Source: a virus
IMG/VR virus record: IMGVR_UViG_3300042882_001046
Location: 54,269 to 118,268 of that record
Length of the DNA: 64,000 bases
Strand: one strand, 5' to 3'
Shown here: positions 6,242-54,743 of the stretch, piece after piece
Layout of the letters: each line of letters begins with the position of its first letter
Position numbering within the stretch: the stretch's first letter is position 1
The notes under the pieces: generated by a model
The model's database searches: none
What the model was told of the DNA's origin: nothing
Seen by the model: only the letters and a program-made list of their open reading frames with translations
Position numbers and translations under genes: made by a program

Positions 6242-6664
6242 GGGGATGAAATGGTATCGATTGGCATTGTTGGGGATAAGTGGCACGTAGTCAGAATTCA
6301 TCTATGACTTTAATCTATGGTGAAGACAATTAGCTGGCAATACTTTTGCTAAGATGGCGACTTTAGGTTTAACTAGAGAAGCTTCTGTTGTAGCTGCCTA
6401 AGAGGTAGTCACAACCGTTACTCCAACCAAGTTGGTGTAACCTCGGGTCGATTAGGACGTTAACCTAGGAACAGAAGTCCAATATACGGGTCACAGGTCA
6501 GAGCTCGTTTAAAATAATTCTGAGACCAGGTTGTTTGTAAGTTTGGTTCCCACATACATCAAACTTAATATTTCGGAACGTTGAGAAACAACGTTGTACT
6601 AAACGTGTAGTCATTTATTGTCAAAGTGAGCAAGACGCGGGTTCGACTCCCGCCATCTCCACCA
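6242..6664 (+). ncRNA. ssrA: tmRNA
   Basis: Acceptor GGGGATG/CATCTCC with G3:U70, discriminator A and encoded CCA; T-arm GCGGG-TTCGACT-CCCGC; tag ORF 6336-6401 GNTFAKMATLGLTREASVVAA* after UAGCU resume context. Confidence 0.93.
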
Positions 6665-18536: not shown

Positions 18537-18706
18537 CTGTAAGGGAAGGAGTCGAACCTTCAAGAGGAGATTCAATTGATAACACAACGCTTGCAAGCTG
18601 GTGGTCTACCCCATATTATCAATCTATTTCTTTGTCCCCGCCCCCGAGACAGGAGGGTGCGTATGCCAAGGTCATAACTGAGACAACCTAATTTCGCCAC
18701 CTTACA
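18537..18706 (-). ncRNA. Oversized (170 nt) tRNA-like RNA with insertions in D-loop and variable arm
   Basis: Perfect acceptor TGTAAGG/CCTTACA, T-arm GAAGG-TTCGACT-CCTTC, Leu-like D-arm GCG...CGC. Confidence 0.75.
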
Positions 18707-18798: not shown

Positions 18799-18802
18799 AA
18801 AT

Positions 18803-18902
18803 AAAAGTGTTTTGGTCAACCACTCGCTACCCACCGCAGTATGACGATTCCCCCTGTGGTCATCGTACTTACGCCTAAGCCTTGTCCGTTGTAAACACTT
18901 TT
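18803..18902 (-). ncRNA. Structured inter-tRNA element
   Basis: 10-bp closing stem AAAAGTGTTT/AAACACTTTT. Confidence 0.45.
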
Positions 18903-18903
18903 G

Positions 18904-18977
18904 GGTGACTAACGGGAATCGAACCCGTGACAACTTGAACCACAATCAAGCGCTCTACCTACTGAGCTATAGACACC
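18904..18977 (-). tRNA. trnH: tRNA-His(GTG)
   Basis: G-1:C73; CTTGA-TTGTGGT-TCAAG. Confidence 0.9.
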
Positions 18978-18982
18978 ATATG

Positions 18983-19052
18983 TTGCGTGTATGAGGTTCG
19001 AACTCACTTGACCTTCCTTATGAGAGAAAGTTCTTTCCCACTAAGCCACGCA
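18983..19052 (-). tRNA. trnM: Atypical tRNA (CAT), probably elongator Met
   Basis: CTCATAA loop and normal T-arm; 6-bp acceptor and shortened acceptor/D junction. Confidence 0.6.
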
Positions 19053-19058
19053 GTTTAG

Positions 19059-20700: not shown

Positions 20701-20754
20701 AATTATTCAACAAAAATACGACCAATAAATCAAAGAACCAAAAAACATCAAAAT

Positions 20755-20937: not shown

Positions 20938-20968
20938 CAAAGATACAAAAAAATCTTTGGGTGTCAAA
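20938..20968 (-). promoter_or_regulatory. Bacteroidota primary-sigma promoter for leader A
   Basis: TTTG(20968-20965)-N19-TATCTTTG(20945-20938). Confidence 0.8.
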
Positions 20969-21504: not shown

Positions 21505-21543
21505 AATACAAAGATACAAAAATATTTCGTACCACAAAAAATA

Positions 21544-22610: not shown

Positions 22611-22648
22611 ATTGTCTTACAAATATAACCTTTATGGAATCATAAATC

Positions 22649-22683
22649 AAAAAAAACCCCAAACTTTTTTTTTAGTTTGGGGT
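22649..22683 (-). terminator. Intrinsic terminator
   Basis: CCCCAAACT/AGTTTGGGG followed by T8. Confidence 0.75.
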
Positions 22684-53642: not shown

Positions 53643-54743
53643 TTAAGGTTTTAATACAGCAACAACCTCGGGGTATTCTTTTTCTAAGACTTTTTTGTCT
53701 TTACCCTCATAAGGAATATTTTGTAAAATGTATCTAATGGCGTTTAATCCCGATATTCTTTTATCTTGTGAATCAATAATAACCCAAGGATTGTTAACTG
53801 TGGAGGTTTTATCAAAAAGTTTTTCTTTAAATTCTGTAAATCTATCCCATAGGTCTTGCATTTTTGAATCATTTGGAGAATATTTCCAATATTTTAATGG
53901 CGATTTTTGTCTGATGTCAAATCTTCTTTTTTGAGTATCTTTTTCAATTGAAAACCATAACTTAAACAAATAATCTCCTTCTCTAACTAAATCGTTTTCA
54001 AAATTCTCAACGTTTTCCATAAAGTCCTCATACTCTTCTGGTGACCCGTATCCCATAACAGGCTCAACTAAACCTCTGTTATACCAACTTCTATCAAAGA
54101 AATTAATCATTCCTGGTTTAATTTCTCTTTTGTATCTTCCCCACCAATCTTTTCTATCTTCAGGACTTGGTATCCCTAAAGCAACCACATTGTAGTATCT
54201 TGGATTTAAATTTTCTGTAAATTTCTTAATTGTAGAACCTTTACCTGCAGAATCCCTACCTTCAAAAACTATGATTACTGTTTTACCTGTTTTCTTTAAC
54301 CATTCTTGTAATTTCAACAATTCAACTTGAAGTTCAAACATTTCTTTTTTGTAAACTTTCTTTGGGACGATTGATGGTTCTTCGTCAAAGTCAAATTCAT
54401 AATCTTCAGCGTCAGGTTCAACACCATACCCTTTTTTTTCTCTAAATTTTAAAGAACTGATTATTTTACCAAAATAGTCTGATACGTTTCTTTTTTTGTC
54501 TCCCTTCTTAAGTAGAACTTTTCTAAGTCCTCTCTCTAACAATCCAAAATCAATAATTTGTTCTTTGGCTAAATTGGTAATTTCAATCAACATCCTCTCA
54601 ATTGTCGGGTTATAGATTTTAAGATACCTTAAAGCCTCCACACTTTTTGATAAATTAATGTTAAGATGTTTTGGCGAATTTTTATCTTCGGTCATCACAC
54701 CCATTACACTTTTGATTCTATCTATCTCATTTAATAACTGCAT
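53643..54743 (-). CDS. ppk2: Polyphosphate kinase 2 with about 120-aa N-terminal extension
   Basis: FEGRDSAGKG, FDRSWYNR, KLWFSI, KYWKYSP. Confidence 0.92.
   Translation of the reverse strand: MQLLNEIDRIKSVMGVMTEDKNSPKHLNINLSKSVEALRYLKIYNPTIERMLIEITNLAKEQIIDFGLLERGLRKVLLKKGDKKRNVSDYFGKIISSLKFREKKGYGVEPDAEDYEFDFDEEPSIVPKKVYKKEMFELQVELLKLQEWLKKTGKTVIIVFEGRDSAGKGSTIKKFTENLNPRYYNVVALGIPSPEDRKDWWGRYKREIKPGMINFFDRSWYNRGLVEPVMGYGSPEEYEDFMENVENFENDLVREGDYLFKLWFSIEKDTQKRRFDIRQKSPLKYWKYSPNDSKMQDLWDRFTEFKEKLFDKTSTVNNPWVIIDSQDKRISGLNAIRYILQNIPYEGKDKKVLEKEYPEVVAVLKP

Follow-up and report, generated by a model that had tools for sequence, protein, structure and literature searches.

A tRNA array in the DNA of an uncultivated virus, a large lake phage, contains an element that resembles a tRNA and is 170 nucleotides (nt) long, and the question that it raises is whether this is a gene for a functional RNA and, if so, what such an RNA would do. 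We analyzed it within a stretch of 64,000 nt (positions 54,269 to 118,268 of IMG/VR record IMGVR_UViG_3300042882_001046; this entire stretch is referred to below as the window). The source record is a 118-kb fragment with an estimated completeness of 39%, and the nearest cultured relatives of the phage, judged from one neighboring protein gene only, are Flavobacterium phages. The array around the element comprises 23 tRNAs called by ARAGORN that cover all 20 amino acids; ARAGORN makes no tRNA call on the element. It is encoded on the minus strand (18706 to 18537, so that RNA position p equals 18707 minus the window coordinate) and is separated from the preceding tRNA-Ser(UGA) by 4 nt and from the following tRNA-Ile by 5 nt. 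This is the spacing found elsewhere in the array, as a preliminary description made from the letters alone had remarked, and it is so tight that the neighbors could not mature without freeing the RNA between them; maturation of both would thus release it, in keeping with the tRNA-like processing proposed in that description. The same description had the CA trailer in common with the neighboring genes; a CA does follow the discriminator of the element and of two Leu, two Ser, and the Tyr genes, 6 of the 8 genes inspected in all.

The element has a cloverleaf of the tRNA type whose D loop contains a hairpin of 21 nt and whose variable arm is branched and 80 nt long (all features that follow are on the minus strand). 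The perfect acceptor stem of 7 bp and the canonical T arm that had been described are both present: UGUAAGG at 18700 to 18706, which includes U1, G2, and U3, pairs with CCUUACA at 18538 to 18544, which is followed by the discriminator G73 at 18537 (3' strand with discriminator, 18537 to 18544) and by C74 at 18536, and the T arm reads GAAGG-UUCGACU-CCUUC (18545 to 18561). After the acceptor stem come U8, G9, and a 3-bp D stem, whose 5' strand GCG (18695 to 18697) pairs with CGC at 18659 to 18661. The D loop holds A14, G18, and G19; its alpha part is occupied by the hairpin AGGUUGU-CUCAGUU-AUGACCU (18669 to 18689), and the remainder, UGGCAUA, which contains G18 and G19, together with the 3' strand of the D stem extends from 18659 to 18668. 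A single base separates G19 from A21, so there is no nucleotide 20a. The anticodon-like arm (18641 to 18657) has a stem of 5 bp, CCCUC/GGGGG, and the loop CUGUCUC (18646 to 18652), with the GUC triplet and the nonpurine at position 37, here U, that had been read from it. The variable arm (18562 to 18640) has the same junctions as that of the tRNA-Leu of the window, with one base between it and the anticodon stem and two between it and the T stem. It is built from the helices V1 (18636 to 18639 with 18564 to 18567), V1b (18629 to 18631 with 18568 to 18570), and V2 (18613 to 18623 with 18575 to 18585) and from internal loops that read GAAAUAG opposite UGAAUC. Its apex consists of a hairpin, GGGGUAGACCACC (18600 to 18612), which carries a GACCAC motif and a bulged A, and of the palindrome GCUUGCAAGC (18589 to 18598). 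The long stem expected in this region was therefore found, although the arm is longer than the approximately 75 nt first given.

The folding energy of the single sequence is ordinary in comparison to shuffled sequences (z = −0.16), so that the evidence for this fold is comparative. A pattern search with the D arm yielded five near-identical copies in which compensatory changes were already visible; an exact 22-nt apex motif occurred in 93 viral contigs, all of which carried the giant-armed RNA, and a pattern independent of the apex matched at least 118. A covariance model of the family (R1), built from 56 sequences including that of the window, confirmed at least 164 viral contigs, most with one copy each and one with two. 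The window element scores 196.6 bits against this model (E = 5e-52, model positions 1 to 169), independent members score 87 to 201 bits, and bacterial copies, described below, score 70 to 123 bits. The best-scoring ordinary tRNA is tRNA-Leu(UAA), at about 38 bits, which fits the Leu-like D arm, interrupted by a hairpin, of the preliminary description.

Applied to 56 distinct phage sequences, RNAalifold returned the acceptor, D, anticodon, and T stems, V1, V1b, V2, and two small apical hairpins, with changes on both sides in 24 of 43 pairs. When the D-loop hairpin was added, 98.9% of the cells were paired and 27 of 49 pairs had double, compensatory changes. None of 500 shuffles equaled any of five measures, and 3' partners that had been slid along the alignment were only 40 to 59% paired. 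The changes are spread over the whole structure: in the 56 copies, all 7 acceptor pairs are kept and 5 of them have compensatory changes, as do 3 of the 4 pairs of V1, 2 of the 3 of V1b, and 6 of 9 in V2, while both-side changes affect 2 of the 3 D-stem pairs and 3 of the 5 pairs in each of the anticodon and T stems. The D-loop hairpin is paired to 96%, with both-side changes in 3 of its 6 pairs; it is missing from many phage copies and from all bacterial copies and is thus an optional part of the family. Only the two small apical hairpins lack compensatory support; the one with GACCAC is conserved in sequence and shows no covariation. The window element is therefore a functional gene for a real, selected tRNA-shaped RNA, and the covariation in homologs that had been named as a check on it exists. 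An alternative refold that had been suggested for the central arm, UGUCUC/GGGACA, is possible in the window sequence and is not conserved: 81.3% of its cells can pair, compared to 80.9% in shuffles, and, as it has no covariation support either, we rejected it as a real structure.

Another check, a search of Rfam, gave no match over 18537 to 18706 in Rfam 15 even at a permissive E value of ≤1, including the models for tRNA (RF00005), YrlA, tmRNA, and phi29 pRNA, and no Rfam intron or ribozyme matched over the element. Among 50,697 cultured-phage records, there was no copy; the T arm alone matched, in a Prochlorococcus phage tRNA-Asn. A full-text literature search found no description of the giant-armed family. 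A candidate structured RNA from IMG/VR, csRNA DNAVirus_1850, is reported with 27 occurrences, one of which overlaps a tRNA-Asp prediction (PMC10690425), and it may be the same family; no host homologs, anatomy, or function are given in that paper.

The family is not confined to viruses. A scan of a genome collection gave 81 loci, 76 of which were confirmed by model R1; five matches outside or at the edge of the Bacteroidota failed the model, as expected of chance matches. Confirmed loci come from cultured Arcicella species, Cytophaga aurantiaca, and Cnuella takakiae and from many genomes of Saprospiraceae, Chitinophagales, and Lewinella. Each genome has one locus, often with tandem genes (1 to 6 copies). 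In the order that contains Arcicella, the RNA was found in 107 of 151 sampled genomes, and many of those listed without a match are very small; in a phylum-wide sample of Bacteroidota, it was found in only 14 of 151. The RNA belongs to a large family, shared by Bacteroidota and their phages and not represented in Rfam, that is nearly universal in a major bacterial order, is often present in several copies, and probably does not serve ordinary codon reading. The family is native to chromosomes of Cytophagales, Chitinophagales, and Saprospirales-type Bacteroidota, with the window element as a phage-borne member.

The bacterial genes have their own signals, a TAnnTTTG box about 20 nt upstream and a terminator hairpin downstream. 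The base after G73 is C in each of 64 bacterial copies, 23 of which encode CCA; the invariant C74 and the frequent CCA indicate a functional aminoacyl-acceptor end. Five bacterial loci were also compared with Rfam and subjected to tRNA calling, and their copies were likewise unmatched and below the threshold of the tRNA model; tRNA finders therefore overlook this RNA in annotation. The neighbors are housekeeping genes that differ among lineages: a divergent regulator of the AsnC/Lrp type followed by sufB lies upstream at 25 of 56 bacterial loci, in two orders, and hisG and hisD lie downstream at the Arcicella loci. No partner gene, that for aspartyl-tRNA synthetase (AspRS) included, is consistently adjacent among these 56 loci. 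In one of them (L213), aspS is convergent with a tandem array at a distance of about 140 nt, and we discarded this adjacency as a functional clue because it is limited to one genome. Tandem arrays of 3 to 6 copies are found at this locus (L213:7144-7661, minus strand) and in genomes G072, G151, and G120. Tandem bacterial paralogs keep the tRNA core and the loop and have swapped modules at the apex of the arm, some of them without GACCAC. About 2.7 kb from the Arcicella copy in L171, a DUF805 RNA motif (RF03081, 69.7 bits; L171:7259-7325, minus strand) was detected, which is probably unrelated.

In phages, several arrays hold the giant-armed RNA among ordinary tRNAs, and 50 of 95 phage loci have no other tRNA in the fetched flanks, so the many lake phages that carry it include some without another tRNA gene nearby. 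The largest synteny group has the order 170-amino-acid protein, RNA, 111-amino-acid protein, and large terminase, with both small proteins uncharacterized. It is a single related clade, and neighbors differ in other clades; a conserved protein neighbor in phages was therefore rejected. Two of the phage contigs that carry the giant-armed RNA also encode oversized Leu-like tRNA-shaped RNAs of 148 nt (L111:7683-7830, minus strand) and 123 nt (L103:4977-5099, plus strand); their long variable regions are unrelated, and by sequence they look like a different family.

A pattern scan of the window located a match to the Bacteroidota-type promoter TTTG..TAnnTTTG at 20711 to 20742 (minus strand), just upstream of the first tRNA of the sub-array that includes the element, and a second upstream of the sub-array at 20938 to 20968 (minus strand). 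The first of these would be the promoter that drives the tRNA array. TTTG-N17-21-TAnnTTTG has 19 matches on both strands of the window, compared to 4.4 expected, a number reached in 0 of 100 shuffles, and this enrichment supports a Bacteroidota host whose type of promoter the phage probably uses. Additional consensus matches on the minus strand lie at 21509 to 21538 and 22620 to 22651. The unspliced element is covered by contigs of RNA libraries from three studies, which may be DNA derived and from which RNA ends, strand, and level cannot be read. These contigs keep the inserts and have no joint that skips them, although a rare spliced form could escape detection in contigs; they are weak evidence that the element is transcribed and not spliced.

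We counted the conserved nucleotides in 159 distinct copies (96 phage and 63 bacterial). U1:A72 and G73 are present in all 159, G2:C71 in 156, and U3:A70 in 155. U8, G9, A14, G18 and G19, the GGC and A of the D region, and the T loop (UUCRA, within GGUUCGA..CC) are invariant in the alignment. The anticodon-like loop has the form Y-N-G-U-C-Y-C, with the GUC triplet in every copy. All 159 copies carry a pyrimidine (U or C) at position 37, and all 63 bacterial ones carry U at position 33, where phage copies have U, C, or A (C or A in 24 of 96); in the nearest relative among the matches listed (L002), C33 is the sole difference from the window element. The window copy itself displays U1:A72, G73, the Y-N-G-U-C-Y-C loop, and the GACCAC hairpin. 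The pyrimidine at position 37 and the variable position 33 in phage copies make routine decoding unlikely, as had been surmised. The window also contains a canonical tRNA-Asp, whose loop, CUGUCAC, differs from CUGUCUC of the element at position 37 alone. The aspartate identity set consists of G73, G34, U35, C36, C38, and G2:C71 (PMC9976931); from G73, G2:C71, and the loop ..GUC.C, it follows that the family has kept this set.

The apical hairpin, GG(G)(G)U-N-GACCAC(C) with a bulged A, is conserved in phage copies found with the apex-independent pattern and in 54 of 63 bacterial copies, and bacteria and phages also have conserved internal loops of the arm in common. In 94 of 95 phage copies, a perfect palindrome of 6 to 10 nt comes after GACCAC, at the same place as in the window and with 16 different sequences, some of them too short for folding back on themselves. 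An apical palindrome is absent from most bacterial copies, and ≥8 nt is reached by 5.8% of shuffles. This pattern suggests selection for self-complementarity, most simply for pairing between RNA molecules, although the palindrome can also be merely a hairpin with a self-complementary tetraloop. In a rough cofold model, replacing the palindrome by a hairpin with a UUCG loop lowered the predicted homodimer stability by about 7.7 kcal/mol. RNAcofold predicts domain-swapped dimers for any hairpin-rich RNA, bacterial copies included; for this reason, only the contrast between palindrome and UUCG is informative, and we did not accept the homodimer energies themselves as evidence for dimers. The D-loop inserts of phage copies are often perfect palindromes as well, of 8 to 20 nt and 14 kinds (20 of 40 flagged inserts compared to 7.9% of shuffles), and such copies thus have two self-complementary loops. 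Examples are L035, L008, L088, L104, and L130; the insert of the window element is not palindromic. A codon-anticodon-like pairing of the GAC in the arm with the GUC of the loop was rejected: neither side varies, and paralogs without GACCAC still keep GUC.

The reading that best accommodates these results, with a probability of roughly 0.45, is that the giant-armed RNA is a mimic of tRNA-Asp that acts off the ribosome, that it is processed like a tRNA, recognized by AspRS, and probably charged, and that its arm serves as a handle for a partner. The phage element would be transcribed together with the tRNA array and excised by the enzymes that mature its neighbors, namely, RNase P at the 5' end and the activities that trim the 3' end and complete CCA. 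The excised RNA would adopt the normal L shape, from which the branched arm of 80 nt would project. It would then display the marks that AspRS reads (G73, G2:C71, G34, U35, C36, and C38), while it lacks those of a routine decoder, namely, a purine at position 37 and, among phage copies, a constant U at position 33; from the presence of the former and the absence of the latter, we infer recognition and probable charging by AspRS and a role off the ribosome. The GACCAC hairpin would serve a second partner as its handle, and the self-complementary loop of the phage copies might allow two RNA molecules to pair into a dimer. One exchange runs counter to recognition by AspRS: bacterial tRNA-Asp has a strictly conserved G1:C72, which positions the 3' end in Escherichia coli AspRS (PMC9976931), and this pair is replaced by U1:A72. 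G1:C72 is likewise found in the host tRNA-Asp, along with an additional U after G19 for which the giant-armed RNA has no counterpart. Class II AspRS comes at the tRNA from the side of the variable region, where an arm of 80 nt might clash. The invariant GUCYC loop could also be read by another protein. More tentatively, and with clearly less confidence than in the mimic itself, we propose that the family is a novel class of tRNA-shaped RNA that belongs to the core of several Bacteroidota orders, has repeatedly been captured by phages, is charged through its aspartate marks, and acts outside the ribosome as a sensor or as a dedicated aminoacyl carrier; its arm might recruit a partner through GACCAC, and the phage loops, in the arm and often in the D loop, might form dimers or assemblies by which a host pathway is taken over or blocked. 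The identity nucleotides make AspRS, GatCAB, and SerRS the enzymes to consider, and cultured hosts exist in Arcicella, Cytophaga aurantiaca, and Cnuella.

A doubtful, though by no means negligible, alternative is that the RNA is never charged and has the shape of a tRNA for processing and stability only. As a decoy or regulator, it would titrate a protein that reads the loop or the acceptor, such as AspRS, tRNA-guanine transglycosylase, or an anticodon nuclease, or it would sense amino acid status, and phage copies would hijack or counteract this function. Such a role would account for an anticodon-like loop and first three acceptor pairs that are invariant (allowing for the few exceptions given above) while decoding features are relaxed, and it gains from the amino-acid-responsive type of the regulator upstream of the bacterial loci, from the phage loci that stand apart from other tRNAs, and from the different apical modules of tandem paralogs. 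It is harder to reconcile with the invariant C74 and the frequently encoded CCA, no nuclease or other partner was identified, and a near-universal, often multicopy chromosomal gene suits a stoichiometric role better than that of an antidefense decoy. The preliminary description had named a decoy for anticodon nucleases, synthetases, or RNase P, or else a tRNA-scaffolded regulatory RNA, as candidates; a pure reading as a decoy against defense is weakened because the window RNA is a copy of a chromosomal family of Bacteroidota and not an invention of phages.

If the RNA is charged, an unlikely variant is that its aspartate is modified, i.e., that AspRS loads aspartate and GatCAB amidates it to asparagine (or that another aspartate-derived product is made) off the ribosome. 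U1:A72 and the absence of nucleotide 20a allow bacterial GatCAB to amidate Asp-tRNA(Asn), and the G1:C72 and extra D-loop U of the host tRNA-Asp, in comparison to the U1:A72 and the single base between G19 and A21 of the giant-armed RNA, correspond exactly to these determinants and antideterminants (PMC1635274). All five host genomes inspected have gatB, and four of the five have both GlnRS and AsnRS, so that GatCAB looks redundant for translation in these hosts. Arcicella gelida (G001) has AsnRS, GlnRS, and gatB and has neither AsnA nor an AsnB-family match above the cutoff. Thermus and Deinococcus, which make asparagine on tRNA, have the same constellation of genes. The regulator beside many loci is, moreover, of the AsnC type. 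However, of 107 genomes with the RNA, 101 have AsnB-family genes above the cutoff, as do 34 of the 44 that lack it, which is no anticorrelation, and gatB does not track the RNA, since it is found in 126 of 151 genomes of the phylum-wide sample, compared to 14 with the RNA. We therefore rejected the stronger idea that the RNA is the sole route to asparagine, for which the distribution of gatB is uninformative. Amidation would also leave the conserved GACCAC arm and the carriage by small phages unexplained. An aminoacyl-tRNA transferase of the MprF/ErdS type (PF09924) was considered as a consumer of the charged RNA and dropped, as it is absent from all five host genomes.

Slightly less probable still is a genuine tRNA-Asp isoacceptor or a special-purpose decoder of GAY codons whose expansions the ribosome tolerates. 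The complete cloverleaf and elbow, the 7-nt loop with GUC, the U33 of all bacterial copies, and the position among ordinary tRNAs in several phage arrays are what such a tRNA would show. They have to be set against the pyrimidine 37 of every copy and the C or A that a quarter of the distinct phage copies have at position 33; in addition, a canonical tRNA-Asp coexists not only in the window but in four of five host genomes, and the RNA stays below the Rfam tRNA threshold and escapes ARAGORN.

We regard it as improbable that the RNA carries serine or a product made from it. The main determinants of serine identity are G73 and the long variable arm, the anticodon being ignored, and a change of A73 to G73 switches a leucine tRNA to serine (PMC9976931); a Leu-like body with an invariant G73 and a long arm is the very combination that turns class II tRNAs over to SerRS. 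In most bacterial tRNA-Ser, however, G1:C72 is absolutely conserved (PMC9976931), where the giant-armed RNA has U1:A72, the arm is four to five times as long as that of tRNA-Ser, and charging by SerRS would leave the invariant GUCYC loop unexplained. A last possibility, a tRNA gene that is decaying and has acquired junk insertions or a fold that arose by chance, has only the unremarkable folding energy in its favor and is refuted by covariation and distribution: homologs number in the hundreds, every main helix has compensatory changes, the loops are invariant, and the bacterial genes have promoters and terminators of their own.

Among known RNAs, the closest in architecture are class II tRNAs, especially tRNA-Leu (RF00005), which have the same 7/5 acceptor/T arrangement, 3-bp D stem, A14, and G18 and G19. 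Their arms have 10 to 25 nt instead of a branched 80 nt, and tRNA-Leu has A73, whereas the giant-armed RNA has G73, the GUC loop, and pyrimidine 37. Bacterial tRNA-Asp(GUC) has G73, G2:C71, G34, U35, C36, and C38 in common with it and differs in G1:C72, in the extra base of the beta part of the D loop, in a short class I variable loop, and in positions 37 and 33, the latter being free in phage copies. The tRNA-Asn that is the substrate of nondiscriminating AspRS and GatCAB shares U1:A72, G73, and the lack of 20a (PMC1635274); its anticodon is GUU compared to GUC in every giant-armed copy, and hosts of the giant-armed RNA have AsnRS and mostly AsnB-family genes. Allo-tRNAs are irregular class II-type metagenomic tRNAs with 8/4 or 9/3 branches, normal-sized arms, and decoding loops (Mukai et al. 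2017, PMC5389517). They, too, are noncanonical long-armed tRNA-shaped genes mined from bacteria and phages (PMC5389517), but the giant-armed family has 7/5 branches, an arm of 60 to 80 nt, and a loop unlike that of a decoder.

Other parallels concern the way in which a tRNA shape is used. tRNA-shaped RNAs with jobs other than decoding, such as tmRNA, the tRNAs of tRNA-dependent amino acid and cell wall pathways, and viral mimics, have each opened a field. In tmRNA, YrlA (Y RNA-like), and the tRNA-like structures of plant viruses, the acceptor/T elbow is likewise a handle while another domain does the work, whereas the giant-armed RNA keeps a full cloverleaf including the anticodon arm and has its extra domain in place of the variable loop. 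Species 1 and 2 RNAs of phage T4 (rnaC/rnaD) are small stable RNAs that are cotranscribed and processed with tRNAs and have no assigned function. No host homologs of them are known, and they have no sequence similarity to the giant-armed RNA, for which nothing beyond the T arm matched in the cultured-phage records. The dimerization initiation site (DIS) of HIV-1 is a palindromic kissing-loop dimerization site; as there, the letters of the self-complementary apex of 6 to 10 nt in phage copies change while the palindrome stays, with the difference that dimerization is only putative here and would concern a tRNA-like RNA of DNA phages.

Three further RNA features were observed in the window. A phage-encoded tmRNA lies at 6242 to 6664 (plus strand), with a tag of 21 residues that ends in VVAA. 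Between tRNA-Ser(UGA) and tRNA-His, a spacer of 104 nt (18799 to 18902, minus strand) has a closing stem of 10 bp (z = −2.07; 6 of 200 shuffles were as good) and contains UUGACCA, which is similar to the GACCAC motif of the arm; it may be another processed small RNA. A tRNA-like sequence at 18977 to 19057 (minus strand), with a closing stem of 6 bp, a hairpin resembling a T arm, and a loop that contains CAU, scores 24.7 bits against the Rfam tRNA model (threshold, 29) and is not called by ARAGORN; it may be an irregular, Ile2/Met-like 24th tRNA of the array.
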